DNA of 54,470 bases, taken from Patescibacteria group bacterium. Lineage in GTDB: Bacteria > Patescibacteriota > Patescibacteriia > Patescibacteriales > UBA12465. Each line of letters begins with the position of its first letter. The stretch's first letter is position 1. The DNA lies in contig JBAZJK010000002.1 in assembly GCA_041651355.1 (NCBI GenBank), forward strand, positions 1-54,470, given 5' to 3'. This document shows, piece by piece, positions 1 through 36,701 of this stretch. A model generated the notes under the pieces. That model was not told the DNA's origin. It worked only from the letters and a program-made list of their open reading frames with translations, and searched no databases. A program made the position numbers and the translations under genes.

Positions 1-2
1 TC

Positions 3-182
3 GTTTATCCCAGATTTCCGCTTCTGAGCGGTAAGTATTACCTCTCGATAGGTCTTTTAAAAAACAGAATAGCAGAGCCGGTATTTTATAAACACAGGGC
101 TTCTACGTTTCAGATGTCTTTTGCGGGCGATGACCACGGGACGGTTTATTTAGAGCACGGCTGGAAATATAAATTACCGTAA
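3..182 (+). CDS. wzt: 3' end of ABC transporter ATP-binding protein, Wzt C-terminal carbohydrate-binding domain (partial, runs off window start)
   Basis: Manual translation of frame 3: VYPRFPLLSGKYYLSIGLLKNRIAEPVFYKHRASTFQMSFAGDDHGTVYLEHGWKYKLP*. The pattern (L-x-G-x-Y-x-L-S-I-G ... F ... G-x-V-x-L-x-x-x-W near the C-terminus) matches Wzt_C, and the gene sits directly upstream of glycosyltransferases. Confidence 0.65.
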   Translation, partial: VYPRFPLLSGKYYLSIGLLKNRIAEPVFYKHRASTFQMSFAGDDHGTVYLEHGWKYKLP

Positions 183-208
183 CTATAAATTACATCCGGA
201 GGGCAGCA

Positions 209-3200
209 ATGAAGAATCGTTATCCAAAAGTTAGCATCATAACCGTAAATTTTAACGGCAGGAGATACCTCGGGGATTTTTTTAATTCCATAGCAAGGCT
301 GCGCTATCCCAAGAATAAATTAGAGATAATTTTAATTGATAACGTATCGGAAGACGGCTCGGTAGAGTTTGTGAGAAAGAGATACCCCAGGGTAAGAATA
401 ATCCAAAACGGTACTAATAACTACTGCAAAGCCGTTAACTTAGGAATAAAGGCAGCCCGTTCAGGATATATTGCGATAGCCAACAACGATACTAAATTAG
501 ACAAGGACTGGCTAGGAGAGTTGATAAGGGTCATCTCCAGCGATAAAAAGATTGCTGCGGCCGGAAGCAAGATACTGCATTGGAACGGCACATTGCAAAA
601 CGCCAGCCATTGTGAATTACCTAATTTTTACTGGGGGGAAAGGGGGGCCGGAAAGCATAGAGATAGCTATAATAATATTGATGAGGTACCCAGCTTATGC
701 GGGGCGGCAGTCTTGTATAGAAAAGAGGCTGTCTCGCGGGTCGGGTTTTTCGATGAGGATTTTGTTATATACGGAGAAGACGTAGATATATCTTTTAGGC
801 TGAGGCAGCTTGGTTATAAACTTATCTTTGTCCCCGATAGCGTTGTTTACCACAGGTTCCACGGCACAGCTACAGAGGAATTAGCGCGTTATTATATAGA
901 GAGAAACCGGCTGTTATTTTTGGCCAAACATTATCCCGAGAAGCTCACCAGTTCCTTGGTGGGCAGCGGTTATTTTACGGCAGAAGGTTCGGTTGACTCT
1001 TGCGGCAGGATATATTCTTTGTTCCCCGACATAATTATGAAGCTTATAAAGACCCACCCCCTAGACGTAGCCAGGAAGGCAATCTCAGACTTATTTGGAG
1101 AGGTAAGTAAAATTGTCAATTACGAAAACGACATATTAACGAAGGCATTGCGTAAAAACGAAGAAGAAAAAAACAAAGTAATACTCTCCCTAAAAGACGA
1201 AATTGAGCATGTCAATTATATCGTAGGGCAAAAAGAGGCCGAGGCGCGTTCTTTGAATAGCCAAATTACGGATATCGTGAAACGGAAAGAACAAGAGGCG
1301 CTTTCCTTAAAAGACGAAATTAAGCGCGTTGCTTCTCTTGCAGATCAGAAAGAATCCCAATCACAGTCCCTAAGAGACCAGTTAAAAGGCGTAAAGGATG
1401 AGCTTGAGAAGAAAACCGAAGAGGCGCTCTCTGGAGACGGACAGCTGATTGAGAAACTGGCAGAGCTCGGCGCCCTAAGAGACCAGTTAAAAGGCGTAAA
1501 GGATGAGCTTGCACGGAGAGCCGAAGAGACCCTGTCTAGGGGGGGGCAACTTATTGAAAAAGAGGCGGAAAACGGAGCGCTTAAAGATGAATTATCCCGT
1601 CTGGCGGAAAACCTTGCTGCTAGGCTGGTTAATCTGGAGGAGAATCAGGCGCAGTTGCTTGAAAAAGATTCTCGAATACAGCAATTGCAGATTGAGAAAG
1701 AAAAAATCGTTAAGGAGAAGGAACACGAACTGGATTGTTATAAAGAAGAATTGAGTAATATTCTGAATCAGTTACGCCGGAGGATGGATGAGGTCCTTAT
1801 CAAAGACAGCCAGATTATTGGAAAAGACGCGCAGATCGGGCAGCTCCGCATTGAAAAAGAACAACAGATAGGCCAGTTAAGAAGAGAGTTGGACGGAATT
1901 TATAACTCTGAAGGCTTCCGTTTAATATTGCGCCCCTTCTGGACAACTATATGGAATGCGAGGAAGGGCATCAAGGCAATGAAGATAAGATTAGGGAAGG
2001 CGATCTGGTTCGCCGTTACTTTGACCTTAGTGCCTTTATTTGTTTTTTTAGCAGCATCTTTTGTTTTTGAATATGCGGCATGGCTTATACTGAGGCCGCT
2101 GTTGAAAAATATCCTTCCCCGGAGGAGAGGCATTCAAAACAAAGACGCGGGAAAGATTAAAATAAGCGTAGTAATCCCGAATTACAATGGCACAGAGTTG
2201 CTTAAAGAATGTTTACCTTCTTTGTTTGCGGCTGAAGGGATTAATGAAGGGAAAAGCGAAGTCCTGGTAGTGGACGATGCCAGCACAGACGGTAGCGTTG
2301 CCTATATCAAGGAACACTTCCCGCAGGTAAAGCTGCTGATAAATAAGAGGAACAGGGGTTTTGGTTTCAGTTGCAACAGAGGCATTAAAGCGGCGAGCAA
2401 CGAGCTGGTGGTATTGCTGAATAATGATATTATTCTGACCAAGGGATTCCTGGAGCCTTTGGTCAGGCATTTCAAGAGGCAGGATGTGTTTGCGGCTACC
2501 CCCAAACTCTACGCCTGGGATAGAGAGACCTTTGCCTGGGGGATGCACATGGGCAATTTTAAGGACGGCTACGTAAGATTATGGAATGAGTCCGAAACAG
2601 GCAATGGCGACAGGCTGCGGCAGCCCGCACCTTCCGTATTTGCTATCGGCGGTGCGGCGGTGTTTCGCAAGTCCGATTTTATGTGGCTTGGGGGGTTTGA
2701 CAATATCTACAGACCGAACTGTTGGGAGGATATAGATATAGGTTACCGTGCCTGGAAGAGAGGGTTGAAGGTTATCTATGAACCGGGCAGCATCCTCTAT
2801 CATAAAGGACGGGCAACCCTGACCTATGAGCGCCCCAAGGAGATAAAAAACGAACTTCTTTTCACCTGGAAGAATATTACCGATAGCCGCATTTTAAAGG
2901 AACATTTTAATTTTCTTCCCTGGCACCTCTATCTTAACAGAATGAATTTCCTGAGAGGATTTTTATGGGCCTTGAACCATCTGCCTCAAACCCTACTGCA
3001 TCGCATTTTAGAAAGGAGGTTTGTCGTACATCCGCAAGATAGAAAAATTTTTAACAGCATCACGCTTTATTATAATAATTTCATAAATAGAGGCTCCCGG
3101 CATCTTAGCGAAAGCAAGCCGACGGTGCTATTGGTTTCACGGTTTCTGCCATATCCGCTTAATGCGGGCGGCAAGATAAGAATCCATAACCTAGTTAAAT

Positions 3201-5428
3201 CGCTGTCTGAAAAATATAATTTTATACTCCTCAGTCTCATTGACCATAAGGACGAATTGGCGTATATACCAAAAATCAAAGAATTGTTTAGCGAGGTTTA
3301 TACGGTATTGGCAAAATCCCCTCTGGATTTGAATTTTTCCTCACGTTTATTTTACCCGGAGTTGTATAAAATAGCCTATAGCTATAGCCGGGAGCTGGTG
3401 GAGAAGCTCAAGGAGCTTGAAGATACGAAAGCAGCGGATATTATACACATAGAAACAAATGAATTATTATACCTGGTTGACTATGTCAAGTCCGCCCCTA
3501 TAGTTTATACCGAGCACGATATAAGCATCCTTTCGCTGCGCAAATCTTATTATAAGAATAAAGGCAACCCGGCGAAGTCCTTTGTTGACCATTTAAAAAA
3601 GGTTAATTTCCACCACCGACAGATTAAAAAAACAGACAGGGTCATTAGCCTCTCAAGAGAGGATGATGCCGTGCTGAGGGGGCTTTTTCCCAAGAGCGCC
3701 ATTACCCTGATACCGACCGGGGTAGATCTGGGGCATTTTTCTTCCAGACGGTCTGCGGGAAAAATAAATAAATTGATATTCGTAGGGCACTATCTTCATT
3801 ATCCCAACGAGGACGCTGTGCTTTATTTTTCGAAGAAGATACTCCCGATCATCAAAAAAAGCGTTCCGGACGTTCAACTGCTGATTGTAGGTTCGAATCC
3901 GACGCCAGCTGTAGAGGCCATCGCCAAGGAAGACAGCGTAAGGCTTATAGGAGAGGTGCCTGATGTTAAGCCTTACCTGGAGGAAGCCGCCGTTTTTGTG
4001 AATGCCATACGCATAAGTGCGGGGATAAAAGGAAAAGTGCTGGAGGCGATGGCTTGCGGGGTGCCGGTGGTTTCTACCAGGAACGGGTCCTCCGGTATCG
4101 ATGCTAGGCCGGAAAAGGATATTCTGCTTGCGGAGAAACCGAAAGAATTCGCAAGACAGGTGATTCGCCTTTTAAGCGACCCACCCCTGAGAGAGCGGAT
4201 CGTAGCCAACGCTAAGCGCCTGGTTCAAGATAGATATGATTGGAAAGGAAGCGCGGATAAGCTCGATGGTGTATATAGGGGGCTATCATTTTTCCAAAAG
4301 GATATCTTCTCCTGTTTGTCTCAAGGTGCAACCGAAGAAGTCGTAAATTACACGAATAATTTCATTGAGCAAAAGATAGCGCAGACAGAAGGCGATCTGG
4401 GAATGGTCTCTGACGGCCCAGAAGAATTGCACATAGAATTGACATATAGCTGTAACAGCAAGTGTATTATGTGCGACCTATGGGATTATAACAAAAGAAT
4501 GCCGTCATCTCCGGGCAAGGAACTTTCTCTTGCAGAGATTAGGAAGTTCGTAGATGAATCCCGTCTCTTGCAGAAAACAAAAACCGTCGTGCTCTCTGGA
4601 GGGGAGCCGTTCATGCGAAACGATATAGCAGAGCTCTGCGGTTTTTTCACCAGAAAATTTCCAGACGGCTCAATCGGCATATTAACCAATGGAATGGCAA
4701 CCGACACGATAGTAGAAAAATCCAAGGAGGTCTTGGACAGGTTTTCTCCCAGATCTCTATGGCTGGGAAGTTCTCTGGACGGAATAGGAAAAACCCATGA
4801 TAAAATCCGGGGGGCCGACGGCGCATTTTTGCGTCTTTGCCAAACAATCAGCCGCTGCAAAAAAGAGTTGCCGGGGGTGGATTTATCGTTGACCTTTACC
4901 CTTACTCCGTATAACGTAGACCAGCTTGTGCCGGCAAAACAGTTTGCTGACGACGAAGGCGTAAATTTCTTTGCTCAATTTGTCGTTCCCAAGTCATCAA
5001 GACAGGAGTTTAACTGGACGCCCCAGGAGCTGAGTCTCGCAGAAAAAGAAATCGGACGCATAATGGAAGGGATATCCGATAAGATGGGTAACAATGCCAT
5101 CTGCGGCGTTAAAGGCATGCAGGATAAAGGGCTGATGGCTCAGCTTTATTTCTGGTCGCACCTTGTCAAATATCAGATTAACCCCCAGAGGTTTTTTAAG
5201 AAATGCGTTGCCGGTTATAGATTCGCGATGCTGAATCCTTACGGAGACTTATTTTTCTGCCCAACCCATAAAGATAATTCTGTCGGGAATCTAAGAGAGA
5301 ATAAGTTTGATTATCTCTGGACCTGCGATAAGGCGGAGCAACTAAGGAGATTTATTTCCAGCGGGAATTGCCATTGCTGGCTGGTTTGCATTCTTTTCCC
5401 GGTATTGGATAAGGTCTTGAGCAATTAA
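209..5428 (+). CDS. 1739-aa multidomain protein: GT2 - coiled coil - hydrophobic anchor - GT2 - GT4 - radical SAM/SPASM-like
   Basis: GT2 #1: VSIITVNFN, IDNVSEDGS, ANNDT, GEDVD. EKLQ-rich heptad region about nt 1130-1910 ending IYNSEGFRL. Hydrophobic stretch IWFAVTLTLVPLFVFLAASFVF. GT2 #2: ISVVIPNYNG, VDDASTDGS, LNNDI, WEDID. GT4: IPTGVD, FVGHYLHYPNEDA, KVLEAMACGVPVVST. Radical SAM: CNSKCIMC (4451-4474), GGEP, C-terminal Cys cluster. GGAGG RBS upstream. Confidence 0.9.
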   Translation: MKNRYPKVSIITVNFNGRRYLGDFFNSIARLRYPKNKLEIILIDNVSEDGSVEFVRKRYPRVRIIQNGTNNYCKAVNLGIKAARSGYIAIANNDTKLDKDWLGELIRVISSDKKIAAAGSKILHWNGTLQNASHCELPNFYWGERGAGKHRDSYNNIDEVPSLCGAAVLYRKEAVSRVGFFDEDFVIYGEDVDISFRLRQLGYKLIFVPDSVVYHRFHGTATEELARYYIERNRLLFLAKHYPEKLTSSLVGSGYFTAEGSVDSCGRIYSLFPDIIMKLIKTHPLDVARKAISDLFGEVSKIVNYENDILTKALRKNEEEKNKVILSLKDEIEHVNYIVGQKEAEARSLNSQITDIVKRKEQEALSLKDEIKRVASLADQKESQSQSLRDQLKGVKDELEKKTEEALSGDGQLIEKLAELGALRDQLKGVKDELARRAEETLSRGGQLIEKEAENGALKDELSRLAENLAARLVNLEENQAQLLEKDSRIQQLQIEKEKIVKEKEHELDCYKEELSNILNQLRRRMDEVLIKDSQIIGKDAQIGQLRIEKEQQIGQLRRELDGIYNSEGFRLILRPFWTTIWNARKGIKAMKIRLGKAIWFAVTLTLVPLFVFLAASFVFEYAAWLILRPLLKNILPRRRGIQNKDAGKIKISVVIPNYNGTELLKECLPSLFAAEGINEGKSEVLVVDDASTDGSVAYIKEHFPQVKLLINKRNRGFGFSCNRGIKAASNELVVLLNNDIILTKGFLEPLVRHFKRQDVFAATPKLYAWDRETFAWGMHMGNFKDGYVRLWNESETGNGDRLRQPAPSVFAIGGAAVFRKSDFMWLGGFDNIYRPNCWEDIDIGYRAWKRGLKVIYEPGSILYHKGRATLTYERPKEIKNELLFTWKNITDSRILKEHFNFLPWHLYLNRMNFLRGFLWALNHLPQTLLHRILERRFVVHPQDRKIFNSITLYYNNFINRGSRHLSESKPTVLLVSRFLPYPLNAGGKIRIHNLVKSLSEKYNFILLSLIDHKDELAYIPKIKELFSEVYTVLAKSPLDLNFSSRLFYPELYKIAYSYSRELVEKLKELEDTKAADIIHIETNELLYLVDYVKSAPIVYTEHDISILSLRKSYYKNKGNPAKSFVDHLKKVNFHHRQIKKTDRVISLSREDDAVLRGLFPKSAITLIPTGVDLGHFSSRRSAGKINKLIFVGHYLHYPNEDAVLYFSKKILPIIKKSVPDVQLLIVGSNPTPAVEAIAKEDSVRLIGEVPDVKPYLEEAAVFVNAIRISAGIKGKVLEAMACGVPVVSTRNGSSGIDARPEKDILLAEKPKEFARQVIRLLSDPPLRERIVANAKRLVQDRYDWKGSADKLDGVYRGLSFFQKDIFSCLSQGATEEVVNYTNNFIEQKIAQTEGDLGMVSDGPEELHIELTYSCNSKCIMCDLWDYNKRMPSSPGKELSLAEIRKFVDESRLLQKTKTVVLSGGEPFMRNDIAELCGFFTRKFPDGSIGILTNGMATDTIVEKSKEVLDRFSPRSLWLGSSLDGIGKTHDKIRGADGAFLRLCQTISRCKKELPGVDLSLTFTLTPYNVDQLVPAKQFADDEGVNFFAQFVVPKSSRQEFNWTPQELSLAEKEIGRIMEGISDKMGNNAICGVKGMQDKGLMAQLYFWSHLVKYQINPQRFFKKCVAGYRFAMLNPYGDLFFCPTHKDNSVGNLRENKFDYLWTCDKAEQLRRFISSGNCHCWLVCILFPVLDKVLSN
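1368..1511 (+). repeat. 39-bp exact direct repeat (1368-1406 and 1473-1511) inside the coiled coil, spacing 105 nt = 35 aa
   Basis: ccctaagagaccagttaaaaggcgtaaaggatgagcttg occurs twice (LRDQLKGVKDEL). A looser SLKDEI repeat lies at about 1185 and 1302. Confidence 0.9.
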
Positions 5429-5439
5429 TCCTTAAGGAT

Positions 5440-6603
5440 ATGGTTGAAGCCCAAGAAAAGAGATCAAAGCGGATTGCGGAGCTTAAGCGGAATATCATAA
5501 ACACCGCAACCAAAAGAGCGCAGGAGGCATCCTATCCTATCGCCGCCCGCAATAAAAATTTGCTTCTGAATGACTTTGAATATGCAACAGGCAAGATAGC
5601 CCTAGAGTCTTCTCCCGAGGGTATCGGTATAGGGACGCATTACGCCTGCAATGGGAAATGCGTTTTTTGTTTAGGCGGAAAACCCCGGATTTTCTCGCTT
5701 GAGAGATATAGGGAATTTTTTGAGCCGAGACTGGAAAACGTTTTATCAAGAGCAAGCTATGTGAGCTTCTGCGGTTTCGGAGAGTTGTTTTTAATGCCGC
5801 GGGTAGAGGAATTCATGGATTATGTAAATAAAAAAATTCCATGGGCTAATAAGATATATACTACAAACGGAGCGCCTTTAGCCAATGATAAGATATTAAA
5901 TTTACTTACCCAGAGCCAATCCGCAGTGCAGATATCTCTTCACGCCTCTCATAGAGAGCTCCACAGGGCCTTGACGAAATTAGACTCCTTTGACGAGATT
6001 GTAGCCAGAATAAGACAAATAATCTCTATGCGTAAGTCAAAAGAGCGCCCCAGCGTGATTCTGGTTTTTCTTATCAACAGCCTGAATGTGGAGAATCTTG
6101 CGGATTTTGTGGAGTTTGCCCATCGCCTGAGGGTAGACGAGGTGCGATGTAATTATATGACGGCATTCCATCACTCCCAGCTAAAGCTTTCATGTTTCTT
6201 TAAACAAGAGTTAACCAACCGGAGCCTGGAGGAGGCCGAAGAACGCGCTGCTAAGTTGGATTTGATTTTGAAACTGCCTCCGAGATTCGGCCGGGGTAGT
6301 CAAGGAACAGGGAGCCTCCTGTGCGCCGAACCCTGGAAATACATCTATGTGGAGAATGAATCTTCGGTCCTGCCGTGTTGTTATGCAGGCAGTCACTTCG
6401 GCTATTTGGACAGGATGGACTTTCAGACTATCTGGAACGGCTCAAGTTATAGGCAGTTGCGCAAGTCCTTGGTAGAGGGGCCGCCCCATAAATGGTGCAA
6501 ACATTGCCAGAGATACCGCGCAGAAAATATAAACGACATCCGTTCGCACATAAACTTCCGCCCCGGAGGGCTTTTAAAGATCTTGAAAGGGTATAAATTA
6601 TGA
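5440..6603 (+). CDS. Radical SAM/SPASM-domain protein (module A)
   Basis: CNGKCVFC, GFGE, TTNG, SLHAS. C-terminal CAEPW...PCC...IWNG...CKHC. Confidence 0.9.
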   Translation: MVEAQEKRSKRIAELKRNIINTATKRAQEASYPIAARNKNLLLNDFEYATGKIALESSPEGIGIGTHYACNGKCVFCLGGKPRIFSLERYREFFEPRLENVLSRASYVSFCGFGELFLMPRVEEFMDYVNKKIPWANKIYTTNGAPLANDKILNLLTQSQSAVQISLHASHRELHRALTKLDSFDEIVARIRQIISMRKSKERPSVILVFLINSLNVENLADFVEFAHRLRVDEVRCNYMTAFHHSQLKLSCFFKQELTNRSLEEAEERAAKLDLILKLPPRFGRGSQGTGSLLCAEPWKYIYVENESSVLPCCYAGSHFGYLDRMDFQTIWNGSSYRQLRKSLVEGPPHKWCKHCQRYRAENINDIRSHINFRPGGLLKILKGYKL

Positions 6604-12967: not shown

Positions 12968-14845
12968 ATGAATGAGACGTCTAAGTATTTCAGAAAAAAC
13001 ATATTTCCCAAGAGGGTATTTTTAAACTGGGAGGTTACTCATCAGTGCAATTATAATTGTTTGTACTGTTCAATTCATAAGCCATTAACGACTGAATCTC
13101 TGCCCCGCCTGTCTATGGGAAAAATGAAGGAGATAAGCTGCGGGATATATGAGAGCTACGGAAGTTGTCATATAAGATTTTCAGGAGGGGAGCCTTTTGT
13201 TTGCCCGGATTTTATCCAGTTTCTTCGGGTGCTTTCAGAGTATCATACCCTGGAAGTCTCGACCAATCTCTCTGCGGATGTAAATAATTTAAAGGAACGA
13301 CTGTGTCCGGAGGGCCTGCTTTTATCAAGCAGTTTTCATCCGCAGTTCATTGATATCCACGAATTTCTAAAGAAGGTCCTATTTTTAAAAAATAGCGGGT
13401 TCGATATTTCGGTTACCTTTGTAGCATATCCTCCATTTTTGGCGCAACTAAAATATTATAGAGAGACCATAGAGAATAATGGAATACAATTCATCATTCA
13501 GCTTTTTAGCGGCGCATTCAACGGCCTAAGGTATCCGGAGTCATATACAGATGAGGAAAAAATGTTACTTAAAGAGCAGGCCGGCCTTTCTTTGCACAAA
13601 GATGCTAATAAGCAGATATACGAATCAAAGATGGATATCGGGAGAATCCACGCTCGCATTTGCCGCATGGGCCAGATGTATGCCAAGATCGACAATAATG
13701 GCGATGTATTCCGCTGTTGCGCATCAGGTAGCCCCAAATTGGGTAATATATTTAATGGTGGCTTGCAATTGTTGGATAAACCCCAGGCGTGCGAAATTAA
13801 CCCTTGCCCGTGTTGGAAGGCTATGATAGTAGGAGAAGAAGAGGTCTGGCTTAAGAATTGGGAATATCAAAAGCATCGGAAAGAAGGTAATTCCATTGAG
13901 GGAGGTGGTAACTTGGAGTCGTCTCTTAATATCAAGGAGACCATCCCGAGAGAATCAATTCCTCCCCACCGCGTATTTTTTACTTGGGATATCCATTATA
14001 GATGCAACTACAGGTGCACATATTGTAATGCCCCAAAGCCGGGGCAGGGAGGCTTTATTGAGGCGCGATACCTGCCGATTGATAAATGGTTAGCTATTTG
14101 GGGAGATATTTATGAAAGGTACGGCAGGTGCCAGATACAGTTATCGGGAGGCGAGCCGTTTATTTATCCCGGAGCCATGGATTTAGTAATACAGCTTTCT
14201 AAAATACATACCTTGGAATTTTCAACTAACTTTTATTGGGACATCGAGCCTTTTATACAAAATGTTAGTCCGGACAGAGCGCGGATAGGCGTAAGTTTTC
14301 ATCCCGAATTTGCTGATTTCGGTTCATTCTTAGACAAAGCCTTAAGGTTAAAAAGAAACGGGTTTGAAGTGTGGGTAAATTACGTAGCTTATCCCGCCTT
14401 ACTAAAAGACATGCCGGGATATAAACTTGAAATAGAGAGAGCGGGGATGCATTTTTCAATTTTGCCGTTCACGGGGCAATTTGAAGGGAGGGTATTTCCC
14501 GGGGGATATACTGAGCGCGAAATGATGGTTATAAATGAGGGGTATGTGGCGGCCGACGAAGTCAATAAAAAAACAATAGATTGGAATATGGGTGAACAAA
14601 AGAACAAGACCAAAGGAAAATTATGCCGCATGGGGCAAATGTACGGAAAGATCCGTCCTAATGGATTGGTGCATAGGTGTTGCGGCACCCCGGCTAGTGA
14701 GTTGGGCAACATAATCGATGGGACGTTTAAGTTATCGGAGGAACCCCTGGCTTGTGAGTCAGAGCAGTGTCCTTGCTGGCGATGTATGCTTGTATCGGAT
14801 GAAGGGCAGTGGTCAACCCATTGGGTTATACCTCATAAGCGCTAG
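12968..14845 (+). CDS. Tandem double radical SAM protein (modules B+B)
   Basis: Two homologous halves, CNYNCLYC and CNYRCTYC. Each half has GGEPF, STN, SFHP, CRMGQMY, and a C-x4-CPCW ending. Confidence 0.9.
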   Translation: MNETSKYFRKNIFPKRVFLNWEVTHQCNYNCLYCSIHKPLTTESLPRLSMGKMKEISCGIYESYGSCHIRFSGGEPFVCPDFIQFLRVLSEYHTLEVSTNLSADVNNLKERLCPEGLLLSSSFHPQFIDIHEFLKKVLFLKNSGFDISVTFVAYPPFLAQLKYYRETIENNGIQFIIQLFSGAFNGLRYPESYTDEEKMLLKEQAGLSLHKDANKQIYESKMDIGRIHARICRMGQMYAKIDNNGDVFRCCASGSPKLGNIFNGGLQLLDKPQACEINPCPCWKAMIVGEEEVWLKNWEYQKHRKEGNSIEGGGNLESSLNIKETIPRESIPPHRVFFTWDIHYRCNYRCTYCNAPKPGQGGFIEARYLPIDKWLAIWGDIYERYGRCQIQLSGGEPFIYPGAMDLVIQLSKIHTLEFSTNFYWDIEPFIQNVSPDRARIGVSFHPEFADFGSFLDKALRLKRNGFEVWVNYVAYPALLKDMPGYKLEIERAGMHFSILPFTGQFEGRVFPGGYTEREMMVINEGYVAADEVNKKTIDWNMGEQKNKTKGKLCRMGQMYGKIRPNGLVHRCCGTPASELGNIIDGTFKLSEEPLACESEQCPCWRCMLVSDEGQWSTHWVIPHKR

Positions 14846-14852
14846 GATATTA

Positions 14853-15692
14853 ATGGAAAAACTGAATAACAAACGGATTACATTCTCTTGGGATATACAT
14901 TATGCCTGTAATTATCGTTGTCCGTATTGTTGGTATGCGGCGGACGGGACGTTTTTAAAAAATAAAAATAAATACCTACCATTTAAAAAGCTGATAGATA
15001 TCTGGACCGACATGCATAGAAAACACGGTTCCTTATGGATTGATATAATCGGAGGCGAGCCGTTTATCTATCCTGATTTTAACGAGATAATCAGAGAGCT
15101 TTCCAAAATGCATTTCATAGAGATTACCTCTAATCTGTCAACTGATCTATCAAGCTCTCTAGGCGGGATAAACCCCGAAATGGTGCGCATCGCAGGGACG
15201 CTGCACCCCCTATTCGCAGACCTGCGCGTTTTTATCAGGAACTTACTGGCGCTTAAAGAGCATGGGATAAAAACCTTTGCGCTCTATTTGGCATATCCGC
15301 CTCAAATCCCTCTCATTCCGTATTACAGGGAGAAATTCGCTTATTGCGGGATAGACTTCTCGGTAATAACCTTCTGGGGGGAATATAGGGGTGTCAGGTA
15401 TCCTGAAGGATACAGCCAGGAAGAAATAAATATTATCGAGCCTTTTTTGGGAGAGCGAGGGGAGGAAAAATATCAATTGCGTCCTAAAGAGGTAAAGAGA
15501 AAAATATGCCGTGCCGGGCAAATTTACGTAAATCTAAAAGCCGACGGGTCTGCGTATAGATGTGGTTCCCATAAATCCCAATCATTGGGGAACCTGTTTG
15601 CGGGTAACTTTCAGTTGCTGGATAAGCCCATGCCGTGCGATTCAGACTTTTGTCCCTGCAATGAATGGGCCGGCTTGTTAGTCGAGACGTGA
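14853..15692 (+). CDS. Compact radical SAM protein (module B); start moved from 14718 to ATG 14853
   Basis: MEKLNNKRITFSWDIHYACNYRCPYC, GGEPF, YPP, CRAGQ, CDSDFCPC. ATG 14853 lies 8 nt after the upstream stop and aligns with the paralog starts. Confidence 0.88.
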   Translation: MEKLNNKRITFSWDIHYACNYRCPYCWYAADGTFLKNKNKYLPFKKLIDIWTDMHRKHGSLWIDIIGGEPFIYPDFNEIIRELSKMHFIEITSNLSTDLSSSLGGINPEMVRIAGTLHPLFADLRVFIRNLLALKEHGIKTFALYLAYPPQIPLIPYYREKFAYCGIDFSVITFWGEYRGVRYPEGYSQEEINIIEPFLGERGEEKYQLRPKEVKRKICRAGQIYVNLKADGSAYRCGSHKSQSLGNLFAGNFQLLDKPMPCDSDFCPCNEWAGLLVET

Positions 15693-34938: not shown

Positions 34939-35628
34939 ATGATGACTGACATAGCTGTTTCAATTTGCGTGCCTGCGTTTAACGAAGAAAAAACCCTGAG
35001 GGGAGCCGTTGAGGATTTATTAGAGACTCTGCACTCGAAGGTCGGGGGATTAGATATTATTATCGTTGATGACGGGAGCACGGATTCTACCACGCAGGTT
35101 TCCGTTCAGCTAATGAGGATGCATAAAAATATCAGGGTTATCCGGCATGCAAAAAGAATGGGCATCGGGGCAAGCTACAGAGATGCCTTAAAAATAGCCC
35201 GGGGGGATTATTTTACATGGTTCCCCGCAGACCATGAGAATTCAGCTCAGGAATTTATCCTCTGCCTGCCATATTTAAAAAAAGGCGCGATAGCAACATG
35301 TTATCATCGCGGACAGGACCCCCGGACATATTTGCGGCGTTTTATTTCCCGCGGTTATACCGTTCTTTTAAATATCGTTTTCCGCTTAAATCTAAAATAT
35401 TACAACGGCTTGACAATATTCCCGCTATCGGCCTTGTCTCCGTCCGTTTCTCTTTGCGACGGCTTCTTTTTTACCGCCGAAAATATCATCAAGGCAGTCC
35501 GGAGAGGTTACAAGGTAATAGAACTACCGGCTCCGTTAAAGGGGCGCGCATCCGGAAGCTCCAGTGCGTTGACATTTTCATCTTTCAGACAGGCGATAAG
35601 CGATATCCTGCGTATTTTAAGGGGATAA
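34939..35628 (+). CDS. GT2, polyprenol-phosphate glycosyltransferase (DPM1-like)
   Basis: VSICVPAFNEE, VDDGSTD, GIGASYRDA, FPADHE, R...SSA. Short single domain. Confidence 0.85.
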   Translation: MMTDIAVSICVPAFNEEKTLRGAVEDLLETLHSKVGGLDIIIVDDGSTDSTTQVSVQLMRMHKNIRVIRHAKRMGIGASYRDALKIARGDYFTWFPADHENSAQEFILCLPYLKKGAIATCYHRGQDPRTYLRRFISRGYTVLLNIVFRLNLKYYNGLTIFPLSALSPSVSLCDGFFFTAENIIKAVRRGYKVIELPAPLKGRASGSSSALTFSSFRQAISDILRILRG

Positions 35629-35639
35629 GGATACATCGG

Positions 35640-36701
35640 ATGGGTTTTAAGAGTTCAATACGCTACCTTAGAGTTATAGGCGCACTGTTAAAATCTAATT
35701 TTTTTAAACAGCGCTTACCCATTATCACGATCCTTGGGGTTACTAACCGCTGCAATCTTAGCTGTTGGTATTGTTATGGAGAGCATCCTTACCGTAGCCG
35801 ATGTTGCGATTTCGGCACCGGTGAACTCCTTGAGATAGTAAGGGTTATGCGACAACTAGGCACGCAGCTATTACAACTGCAGGGAGGGGAGCCTCTCCTC
35901 CGCGAAGACTTGGATATCGTTATCGATGAGGCCCATCGTTTTGGGATGGCCTGCGACATGGTCACTAACGGCACTTTGGTTTTGAAGAAAACAGATATAG
36001 TCAGAAGGTTGGATAGAATCTGTATCAGTTTAGACGGGAGGCCGGGTCTGAACGATGCCAACCGCGGAGAAGGCGCATATGGGCGGGCCCTGGAAGGGGT
36101 AGAGTTTGCTTGTTCTTGCGGTTTAGCGGTTCGCCTTAGCGCTGTATTGACCGACAAAACCGCTGCTGAGGACATCGATTGGCTGATAGGTTTAGCGCGC
36201 AGGTATAAAATAACGGTTAATTTTTCACCGCCGTTTTATTTCCGCCCGCAGTTTAGTAAGAATGAAATGACTCCGCACCTCATGGCCGATGTCAAGCTAA
36301 AGTCTCTCCTCCAACATATTATATATCGCAAGAGAGAAAAAGCGCCCATACAATTTAGCCTTGCCAGTTATGGCCTCGCCTTAAACTGGCCGTTTACATA
36401 TAAAAAACGCACCGCAACCCAACAGGAGCTTCCTGCCGGTACCGGATATCCTAAATGCTACCACGGTGACCGTGTTGTATTTATTGACAGTGACGGTAGC
36501 GTTTATCCGTGTTGTAATTTTTGGGGCAGGGCGTATGGCAACATTCGCAACGACGGCATTAAAGCAGCGGTCGGGAATATAAGCAGGGATAATTGCAGAG
36601 CTTGCTATATACCGGCTTATATAGACAGGAACCTTATCTTTGGAATAAATTTTAATGCATGCGGGAATTATGTAAAATACATTATAAGGGGACAGATATG
36701 A
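35640..36701 (+). CDS. Radical SAM protein; start moved from 35298 to ATG 35640
   Basis: GVTNRCNLSCWYC, GGEPLL, VTNG, ISLDG, CYHG...PC...CRAC. The longer ORF overlaps the upstream GT2 by 330 nt. Confidence 0.88.
   Translation: MGFKSSIRYLRVIGALLKSNFFKQRLPIITILGVTNRCNLSCWYCYGEHPYRSRCCDFGTGELLEIVRVMRQLGTQLLQLQGGEPLLREDLDIVIDEAHRFGMACDMVTNGTLVLKKTDIVRRLDRICISLDGRPGLNDANRGEGAYGRALEGVEFACSCGLAVRLSAVLTDKTAAEDIDWLIGLARRYKITVNFSPPFYFRPQFSKNEMTPHLMADVKLKSLLQHIIYRKREKAPIQFSLASYGLALNWPFTYKKRTATQQELPAGTGYPKCYHGDRVVFIDSDGSVYPCCNFWGRAYGNIRNDGIKAAVGNISRDNCRACYIPAYIDRNLIFGINFNACGNYVKYIIRGQI

Follow-up and report, generated by a model that had tools for sequence, protein, structure and literature searches.

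A giant protein with the predicted layout of a glycan polymerase, ruler and terminator carries a fused radical-SAM module in Omnitrophota

Coiled-coil rulers are an accepted means of length control for ABC-transporter-dependent O-antigens and related glycans. To our knowledge, the characterised examples all come from a few Proteobacteria, with caps made of methyl, phosphate or Kdo. The locus studied here lies at the start of a window of 54,470 nucleotides (the whole stretch of DNA that was analysed) and encodes one very long protein in which glycosyltransferases, a putative coil and a radical-SAM domain are combined. We asked whether such a protein could make, measure and finish an exported glycan by itself, and what a radical-SAM domain might do on it.

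A single open frame and its distribution

A first-pass annotation of the sequence had placed GT2, coiled coil, anchor, GT2, GT4 and radical-SAM segments in a single open frame. The ORF call and the Pfam searches confirmed this, the frame being intact over 209-5428 with its stop codon at 5426-5428.

196..200, + strand: Shine-Dalgarno-like GGAGG, 8 nt before the ATG at 209 (direct sequence reading)
209..5428, + strand: whole ORF of 1,739 aa, in the order GT2, coil, hairpin anchor, GT2, GT4, radical-SAM/twitch-SPASM (ORF and domain searches, homologs)

A frame of this length could stem from a chimeric assembly or from reading through several distinct genes: many MAG contigs end within the repeat-rich coil of the giant gene, and the window's own contig begins only 208 nt upstream of it. 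Against this, contigs of four metagenome runs from three studies covered positions 1-5600 with substitutions only and no indels, and some 50 homologs from separate assemblies, among them contigs of 170-200 kb, presented the same single-chain order. Neither a stop nor a misassembly was found among the contigs of the four runs and these homologs, in line with the continuity assumed from the start, and we regard a chimeric origin as scarcely credible.

The approximately 50 homologs recovered by the domain-architecture search come nearly all from Omnitrophota, which are uncultivated. The contig carrying the window is probably a mis-binned Omnitrophota contig; without this correction the pathway would be credited to the wrong phylum. 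LpxC was not found in the genome with which it was binned, but given the probable mis-binning this says little for or against an LPS O-antigen. When domain positions were mapped on the homologs by BLASTP, the catalytic modules were constant in size, unlike the spacer between them, and the catalytic signatures were invariant in an alignment of 18 homologs.

Coil, anchor and glycosyltransferase modules

The central region had been described as a heptad-rich coiled coil, and we analyzed its periodicity, composition and predicted secondary structure.

1061..1903, + strand: heptad coiled-coil spacer, aa ~285-565 (about 270 aa), proposed molecular ruler, ~40 nm if straight (period, AF2)
1368..1561, + strand: tandem duplication inside the coil, 105 nt = 35 aa = five heptads (TRF: 1.8 copies, 80% match)

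Between aa 300 and 560 the hydrophobic period came to 3.55 residues (z = 6.6, reached in 0/500 shuffles), and the same analysis found no such heptad period in the four catalytic modules. Proline does not occur in the 261-aa spacer (aa 296-555). A single-sequence AF2 model of aa 1-660, used for secondary structure only because of its pLDDT of 51, predicted helices at 285-407, 411-441 and 457-565 with low confidence. Among the homologs, the equivalent spacer ranged from 102 to 777 aa; 35 of 37 had a period of 3.50-3.54, proline was nearly absent, and internal repeats were mostly multiples of 7. Indels between close homolog pairs were multiples of 7 in 58 of 122 cases, compared to about 17 expected. 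Judged by these properties, 35/37 homologs have a canonical heptad coil as their central region, and the original description is well supported. The tandem duplication was covered at doubled read depth in run X1. Two Gly-rich breaks (aa 408-410 and 442-456), together with the roughly half of the indels that are not multiples of 7, suggest that the coil may be hinged and not one rigid rod. The homologs offer a natural series of lengths, from 102 residues (P0019 type) to 777 (P0030 type), as a ready-made test of the ruler model. At the upper end, the estimated ~115 nm would be a considerable length in cells that are very small.

The proximal end of the coil leads into a conserved motif and a hydrophobic segment.

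1889..1978, + strand: pre-anchor motif L.GIYNSEGFRF.LRP.W, aa 561-590 (homolog alignment)
1997..2104, + strand: hydrophobic hairpin/re-entrant anchor, aa 597-632, central Pro609, invariant Glu621 (hydropathy, alignment)

The pre-anchor motif, in which I564, S567, G569, L574, P576 and W578 were invariant in the 18 aligned homologs, is probably an interfacial amphipathic element. A Kyte-Doolittle peak at aa 595-630 bore out the hydrophobic anchor noted in the first-pass annotation, and its form could be refined. The core is 22-24 aa long with a near-invariant (T/S)P and an invariant E621, and both flanks are net-positive in nearly all homologs. A single-span transmembrane anchor was rejected, since it would leave nucleotide-sugar- or SAM-dependent domains extracellular and both flanks are positive; from its sequence, a re-entrant or hairpin element is a better description of the segment than a membrane-spanning helix.

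By Pfam and hydropathy, the hairpin is followed by a GT2 and a GT4 module, and a further GT2 stands at the other end of the coil.

209..1093, + strand: N-terminal GT2 module, aa 1-295, proposed distal chain-capping GT (Pfam PF00535/PF13632, aa 3-241)
2153..3088, + strand: second GT2 module, aa 649-960, proposed polymerase GT, inverting, GT-A (PF00535, aa 653-824)
3104..4288, + strand: GT4 module, aa 966-1360, proposed polymerase GT, retaining, GT-B (PF13692/PF00534/PF13439)

Pfam and residue conservation suggest that the distal GT2 is active: D44, D49, N92, D94, E183-D184 and E190-D191-D193 were invariant in the 18 homologs. In the Pfam search the two GT2 stretches span aa 3-241 and 652-870 (PF00535, 4e-50). 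The second GT2 kept D689-D690, N738-N739-D740 and W839-E-D-I-D843 in the same homologs, and had the chondroitin polymerase K4CP as its top PDB sequence match (1.5e-11). The two GT2 modules are paralogs (31% identity, E 2e-26). The N-terminal one is consequently not an obviously different cap enzyme, and might instead serve as a third polymerase or introduce branches.

For the GT4 module, Pfam placed a GT-B domain at aa 1048-1355 (PF13692, 7e-29; also PF13439). Its best NCBIfam match was TIGR03087 (212.5 bits, E 1e-62), under the curated cut-off of 316.65 bits; by sequence it is related to this PEP-CTERM/XrtA-system glycosyltransferase family but is no member of it. In the AF2 model the module had a pLDDT of 80-93, and the best Foldseek matches of that model were MshA, PimB' and BshA (TM on target 0.7-0.77).

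Export partners and comparison with known rulers

The protein had been expected to co-occur with Wzt transporters bearing carbohydrate-binding modules (CBM). The window itself begins within such a gene.

3..181, + strand: wzt, 3' end only, as the contig starts inside the gene; final 59 aa of the second Wzt_C module, TAA at 179-181

This tail matched Wzt_C weakly (E 0.005) and was identical at 59/59 positions to the C-terminus of a 569-aa Wzt at the homolog locus L006, which contains ABC_tran and two Wzt_C domains (PF14524, E 1.5e-24 and 1.4e-10). The paired Wzt_C modules are predicted carbohydrate-binding modules that would read a cap at the chain end. Wzm and a Wzt with ABC_tran and two Wzt_C domains lie directly upstream in 12 of the 14 related loci with enough flank, and were not found within 10 kb upstream at L022 and L031. 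Together with the Wzt C-terminus in the first 179 nt of the window, these loci bear out the expected association. In six loci a WecA-like PF00953 gene and a GT4 gene were also present upstream. Cut off by the contig break, wzm and most of wzt are missing from the window's own assembly. The only ABC2_membrane gene of the binned genome, at C1:317592, was considered as the missing wzm and rejected: it is one of a generic ABC pair and lies in mid-contig, on a contig of 881 kb.

From the observed architecture, conservation, synteny, coil properties and fusion or fission of a second radical-SAM protein (see below), we infer the enzymatic roles, topology and ruler function of the giant protein, and we consider it, with a probability of about 0.6, to be a single-chain polymerase, ruler and terminator for a Wzm/Wzt-dependent surface glycan. 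The short hydrophobic hairpin, with both flanks cytoplasmic, would hold the protein on the cytoplasmic membrane, at its inner face. A WecA-type enzyme, such as the one encoded upstream in sister loci, would start the chain, and the GT2 (inverting) and GT4 (retaining) beside the membrane would alternately lengthen it on undecaprenyl-PP. The N-terminal GT2 would sit at the far tip of a rigid coil, ~40 nm away here and roughly 15-115 nm in the homologs. If it caps only chains that reach this tip, the coil sets chain length. Wzt would then recognise the cap through its two carbohydrate-binding modules and export the chain.

The first-pass annotation had likened the protein to the coil rulers WbdD and WbbB, and its format matches that of WbbB (O12) and of ORF6 (O7). 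According to the summary in PMC11231755 of Williams et al. 2017, WbbB of Klebsiella pneumoniae O12 and Raoultella terrigena is a polymerase, terminator and ruler in a single protein: a GT terminator forms the N-terminus, two polymerase GTs the C-terminus and an extended coiled coil the stretch between, and its partners are Wzm and a Wzt with a cap-reading CBM. The window protein has the same order of parts and the same genomic partners. The WbbB modules belong to GT99, GT102 and GT103, whereas those of the window protein are GT2, GT2 and GT4 by Pfam, the last with retaining GT4 enzymes as its fold matches. In addition, the window protein has a hairpin anchor between coil and polymerase, and its family differs from WbbB in a longer and highly variable coil (102-777 aa), in one or two fused radical-SAM domains and in a two-CBM Wzt. 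WbbB chains were absent from the PDB sequence matches of the window protein, and no sequence relationship was detected; the resemblance is one of analogous architecture and not of family membership.

ORF6 of Klebsiella pneumoniae O7 combines a methyltransferase-kinase, a coiled coil and two GT2 modules (PMC11231755). As proposed for the window protein, the terminator is N-terminal, the coil central and the polymerase GTs C-terminal, in a Wzm/Wzt pathway; the cap enzyme is a methyltransferase-kinase instead of a GT2, and ORF6 lacks the GT4, the integral hydrophobic hairpin and the radical-SAM domain. WbdD of E. coli O9a and Klebsiella O3 is a terminator with a coiled-coil ruler whose length governs that of the chain (PMC3482155; Hagelueken et al. 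2015). Resembling the layout proposed here, its coil stands between a distal terminating enzyme and a membrane-associated end that bears the polymerase, and its cap is read by a Wzt-CBM. In contrast to the window protein, its polymerase WbdA is a separate, recruited protein, it binds the membrane through a C-terminal amphipathic helix and not an integral element, its cap is a methyl-phosphate and it has no radical-SAM domain. If the likeness holds, the ruler principle reaches into a candidate phylum whose members are very small and uncultivated.

In a different account of the same glycan synthase, the coil would serve purely as a stalk for oligomerisation or scaffolding, and the N-terminal GT2 would act as a third polymerase or transfer side branches. 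Other enzymes of the cluster would then terminate the chain and supply the cap that Wzt reads, for instance by methylation through a radical-SAM or B12-radical-SAM enzyme, and length would be set kinetically. The paralogy of the two GT2 modules, the Gly-rich breaks and the out-of-phase indels fit this account, as does the fact that known caps are often methyl or methyl-phosphate (PMC11231755); B12-radical-SAM genes are conserved directly downstream in the window and in related loci. However, the radical-SAM domains of the giant proteins are located at the membrane-proximal end, and a strict 3.5-residue period over 100-780 aa with an enrichment of multiple-of-7 indels represents more order than a plain linker needs. 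We therefore consider the stalk account improbable, although not negligible, and retain the combined polymerase, ruler and terminator.

The fused radical-SAM module and its downstream partner

SPASM/twitch radical-SAM enzymes are best known from peptide substrates. The one found here ends the giant protein, and a second is encoded immediately after it.

4394..5425, + strand: radical-SAM/twitch-SPASM module, aa 1396-1739 (PF04055, PF13186)
5440..6603, + strand: downstream 387-aa radical-SAM/SPASM gene, putative functional partner (Pfam, BLASTP mapping)

Radical_SAM PF04055 matched at aa 1409-1562 (4e-14, 53.7 bits; cut-off 29.5) and SPASM PF13186 at aa 1666-1723 (2e-4, 22.1 bits; cut-off 21.5). 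The CNSKCIMC sequence is a CX3CX2C motif at aa 1415-1422 (nt 4451-4474), and C1415, C1419, C1422, GGEP 1464-1467, C1666, C1684, C1721, C1723 and C1727 were invariant in 18 homologs. The C-terminal cysteines follow the pattern C-x13-G-x4-C ... C-x-C-x3-C, which differs from the canonical seven-Cys SPASM motif in being incomplete, so the module is twitch-like. A Foldseek search with the 1,092-aa C-terminal model taught us nothing about its fold, the top 50 matches being all GT4.

Of 20 orthologous loci that include downstream flank, 19 have the gene of the 387-aa protein next after the giant gene. More than half of the homologs instead carry this protein fused to the C-terminus of the giant protein, at 40-56% identity (P0010, P0013-15, P0017-19, P0021, P0022, P0025-30 and others). 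The distant homologs P0049 and P0051 carry a different radical-SAM type in the same position. The first-pass annotation knew of no characterised polymerase or ruler with a fused radical-SAM domain; the literature searched likewise gave no description of one, nor of radical-SAM chemistry on a polysaccharide backbone. Publications on Xanthomonas that mention 'radical SAM' together with wzt proved irrelevant on inspection.

This covalent coupling of a polymerase to radical-SAM enzymes hints at radical chemistry on a growing polysaccharide. The fused domains would modify sugars of the nascent chain (the donor sugar being less likely) by hydrogen-atom abstraction, possibly for oxidation, epimerisation or preparation for C-methylation, and would form the first station of a downstream radical-SAM battery. 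We tentatively extend this to a wider proposal, which we hold to be possible rather than probable: the backbone of an Omnitrophota surface polysaccharide might be radically rewritten while still lipid-linked, during polymerisation, by the polymerase-ruler-terminator's own one or two fused radical-SAM modules and by up to ~17 further radical-SAM domains (some B12-dependent) encoded downstream. It would be in-line tailoring of the PKS/NRPS kind for a glycan, with length set by a heptad-modular coil evolutionarily tuned from ~15 to ~115 nm. If true, this would represent a new class of glycan modification (C-methylation, epimerisation or oxidation at unactivated carbons) and a source of new carbohydrate-active radical enzymes for glycoengineering.

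Profile searches against PDB sequences retrieved SkfB (1e-14), CteB (2e-9), BlsE, MoaA and the twitch region of BtrN. SkfB and CteB (peptide) and BtrN and BlsE (carbohydrate) share with the module the CX3CX2C motif, the GGEP SAM motif and a C-terminal Cys-rich auxiliary-cluster domain; all these matches are remote, and none of the four is fused to glycosyltransferases. The closest solved relatives, SkfB and CteB, do not favour a glycan role. Like BlsE or BtrN, the fused domain might make or edit the nucleotide-sugar donor of the adjacent GT by substrate channelling and leave the chain untouched. The carbohydrate-acting solved relatives found by profile (BlsE, BtrN, MoaA) all act on small molecules, and unusual donors would need a source, since the window showed no genes of ordinary NDP-sugar pathways. 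On the other hand, the module is unaccompanied by a nucleotide-binding domain, a fusion to a membrane-pinned polymerase fits in-line tailoring at least as well, and repeated independent C-terminal fusions of different radical-SAM types fit it equally or better. Donor synthesis is in our view unlikely, if a serious competitor to tailoring of the chain.

In a hybrid peptide-glycan pathway, the radical-SAM/SPASM domains would instead mature peptides or proteins, in a RiPP-like or enzyme-activating manner; their peptide-modifying relatives and NCBIfam matches that include mycofactocin- and ScmE-type maturases point this way. Every named radical-SAM family in that search nevertheless scored far under its cut-off, and the genes of the window are tightly packed, with no space for a precursor peptide. 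We rejected the RiPP-type reading and consider maturation very improbable in comparison with action on the glycan: the constant partners of the giant protein are Wzm, Wzt-CBM, WecA and GTs, and stand-alone relatives of the fused radical-SAM domain are located in GT-rich glycan clusters.

An intact frame and the contig that carries it

The first-pass annotation had read a glycosyltransferase-rich protein with a C-terminal radical SAM in one open frame. We observed this frame intact at 209-5428, encoding in a single chain of 1,739 aa a GT2-coil-anchor-GT2-GT4-radical-SAM (rSAM) protein, hereafter the giant protein. Its continuity is upheld by contigs from four metagenome runs of three independent studies, which span positions 1-5600 and show substitutions but no indels. 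Pfam recovered all three GT domains as well as the rSAM module, followed by a SPASM domain.

Features of the giant gene (window positions) and of its product (aa)
179-181: stop of the preceding frame, read from the sequence
196-200: GGAGG before the giant ORF, read from the sequence
209-5428, + strand: giant ORF, ATG at 209, stop at 5426-5428
1368-1561: duplication inside the coil, 105 nt (35 aa, five heptads)
5440: start of the next gene, 11 nt past the giant ORF stop
aa 3-241: N-terminal GT2 (Pfam)
aa 597-632: hydrophobic element with a 22-24-aa core
aa 652-870: second GT2 (Pfam)
aa 1048-1355: GT4/GT-B domain (Pfam)
aa 1409-1562: Radical_SAM (Pfam)
aa 1666-1723: SPASM (Pfam)

An NCBIfam search of the giant protein returned sub-threshold matches only, so that no module could be assigned to a named equivalog family. 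Across 18 aligned homologs, each of the four catalytic modules retains its signature residues without change, among them the Asp motifs of both GT2s, the nucleotide-sugar helix of the GT4 and, in the rSAM, C1415/C1419/C1422, GGEP 1464-1467 and five C-terminal cysteines.

The contig holding the window (C2) probably belongs to Omnitrophota and was mis-binned into a Patescibacteria-like bin. Close homologs of the giant gene and its synteny were all found in Omnitrophota, no ortholog was found in 30 relatives of the bin, and no LpxC in the bin itself. Moreover, the window and a stretch of C1, the 881-kb contig of the same bin, are contained in largely different public runs, and the tetranucleotide distance of C2 to C1 was 0.0167, compared to 0.0064 +/- 0.0023 for C1 chunks. 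By contrast, C1 and C2 are similar in source-run depth and GC content, which would also account for the binner joining them.

The heptad spacer and the hydrophobic anchor

A heptad-rich coil had been claimed. At aa 300-560 the hydrophobic period was 3.55 residues (z = 6.6; reached by none of 500 shuffles), and the same test on the catalytic modules revealed no coil-like period. Single-sequence AF2 predicted, at low confidence, helices 285-407, 411-441 and 457-565, interrupted at two Gly-rich spots. When the modules of the reference protein P0001 were mapped onto its homologs, the spacer ranged from 102 to 777 aa (median 238), with catalytic modules of constant size. The dominant period was 3.50-3.54 in 35 of 37 homologs, proline was virtually absent, and internal repeat periods were mostly multiples of 7 (e.g., 35, 70, 105, 42, 49, 63, 91, 98, 154). 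In comparisons of close pairs, exact multiples of 7 made up 58 of the 122 spacer indels that were at least 5 aa long, compared to about 17 expected, an excess that we take as support rather than proof because the pairs are non-independent and coil alignments imprecise. Overall, these sequence features argue for a true heptad coil whose length varies among homologs. At the coiled-coil rise of 0.15 nm per residue, it would be about 40 nm long in the giant protein, with a range of about 15-115 nm among family members.

Approximately 11 of the 28 MAG contigs with the giant gene begin inside it, in the repeat-rich coil just before the second GT2 (L008, L011, L012, L014, L015, L017, L019, L021, L023, L025 and L028), suggesting that coil repeats systematically break short-read assemblies. 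In databases, members of the family are likely to be missed or to appear truncated.

The claimed hydrophobic segment is present, and we read it here as a hairpin or re-entrant element. Its core, with a near-invariant (T/S)-Pro at the centre, is followed shortly by the invariant Glu621, both flanks carry a net positive charge (+2 to +7) in almost every homolog, and a strongly conserved motif, L.GIYNSEGFRF.LRP.W, precedes the element. A single membrane span was rejected, as it would place nucleotide-sugar- or SAM-dependent domains outside the cytoplasm; the favoured hairpin or re-entrant arrangement would spare them this location. Monotopic phosphoglycosyl transferases have a re-entrant helix, which the anchor resembles.

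Export context and a proposed polymerase-ruler-terminator format

The window starts at base 1 of C2. Within it, the first 179 nt code for 59 aa with a weak Wzt_C match, identical (59/59) to the Wzt C-terminus of the sister locus L006. The remainder of wzt and wzm is lost in an assembly gap; one metagenome run (X1) has a 7-kb contig reaching further upstream. The order in sister contigs is FAD oxidoreductase, Wzm, Wzt, giant gene, a 387-aa rSAM/SPASM gene and B12-rSAM plus rSAM/SPASM, with a second B12-rSAM fusion farther downstream. Upstream flank of at least 3 kb was available for 14 related loci; Wzm-Wzt lay directly upstream of the giant gene in 12 of them, and six also encoded an initiating transferase of the WecA type as well as a GT4. 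The partner Wzt (L006:7063-8772, about 570 aa; its tail is window 3-181) carries Wzt_C carbohydrate-binding modules in tandem (aa 270-394 and about 440-569) rather than one. This gene content bears the signature of an ABC-transporter-dependent pathway with cap recognition.

The FAD gene, encoding a 436-aa amine-oxidase-like protein (PF01593/PF13450; PRK07208-like, below cut-off), lies upstream of wzm, mostly adjacent, in 12 sister loci (L006:4927-6240; equivalents in L004, L005, L007, L009, L010, L013, L016, L018, L026, L027 and L029).

Terminators are found in proteins that have a characteristic coiled-coil ruler; WbbB (O12) combines in one chain an N-terminal terminating GT, a coil and two C-terminal polymerase GTs, and O7 ORF6 has the same layout with a methyltransferase-kinase as terminator (Whitfield laboratory, PMC11231755). 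The giant protein has exactly this format of parts without homology to WbbB: its modules are GT2, GT2 and GT4, and the WbbB chain was absent from its PDB sequence-search matches. In an MSA-based AF2 model (pLDDT 71.6 overall, 80-93 in GT4 and rSAM), the GT4 part resembles retaining GT-B enzymes such as MshA, PimB' and BshA. An inverting GT2 with a retaining GT4 would yield a disaccharide repeat of alternating anomeric configuration. The N-terminal and polymerase GT2s are paralogs (31% identical), which would fit a cap consisting of one residue that is added differently and also leaves room for a non-terminating N-terminal GT2.

The proposal of a distal terminator, a ruler and a polymerase is supported by the results on frame, coil and Wzt-CBM partners, with which it passes all the tests set beforehand. 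As far as computation can go, the comparison supports a polymerase-ruler-terminator of the WbbB/O7-ORF6 format, with enzymatic roles and a ruler function that we infer. The giant protein departs from that format in its integral anchor, read as a hairpin, in the unusual length and variability of its proposed heptad ruler, in having two CBMs in tandem on the partner Wzt, and in the covalent fusion of one or two rSAM enzymes.

Radical-SAM enzymes of the locus

A profile of the fused rSAM matched SkfB (1e-14), CteB, BlsE and MoaA, along with the twitch region of BtrN, pointing to an enzyme of the twitch/SPASM type that has no close characterised relative. The 387-aa rSAM/SPASM encoded by the next gene is separate in the window and the nearest clade, and is joined C-terminally to the giant protein in more than half of the homologs. 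The distant homologs P0048, P0049 and P0051 retain GT2-coil-anchor-GT2-GT4; P0048 has no rSAM, and P0049 and P0051 carry at the same C-terminal position another type (CNYRCPYCF) with no match to the rSAM of the window. Radical-SAM enzymes have therefore been fused to the scaffold more than once, indicating repeated, independent recruitment.

At E <= 1e-30, the rSAM domain family comprised 130 clusters, most of them stand-alone proteins 340-400 aa long. Two stand-alone members with readable context (L040:4444-5628 and L039:8001-9032; 41-42% identity; Abyssubacteria and Elusimicrobiota MAGs) both lie in GT-rich glycan clusters, one ordered SIS-GT4-GT9-GT2-rSAM-MT-GT4-GT2-rSAM, the other next to methyltransferases, a GT4 and an ABC pair of the Wzm/Wzt type. 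Beyond the giant gene, the window is dense in rSAM, B12-rSAM, GT, GT-C and SGNH-TPR genes. The stretch 5440-39477 is tightly packed, with all of these genes on one strand; some 14 further rSAM genes (four with B12-binding domains) are interspersed with GT9, GT2, GT4, GT-C (PMT_2, YfhO-like), GH5, SGNH-TPR, a class III aminotransferase and a split transketolase.

Fusions, repeated recruitment, the clusters of relatives and this downstream run tie the rSAM functionally to the glycan machine and lead us to favour, as its role, in-line tailoring of the growing chain. Editing of the donor sugar is a serious alternative. Peptide maturation is unlikely, as the dense downstream run has no space for a precursor peptide. 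In the literature searched, we found no description of an rSAM domain that is fused to a coiled-coil terminator or polymerase or that works with one; a 2026 preprint on Omnitrophota genomes mentions radical SAM and GT domains among giant-protein contents, and does not discuss the architecture.

In the downstream run, a 229-aa GT2 ORF (34939-35628) and a 467-aa rSAM/SPASM ORF (35298-36701) overlap by 330 nt, which a frameshift, a wrong start call or a programmed fusion could explain. A second overlap, of 128 nt, was observed between ORFs 12968-14845 and 14718-15692.
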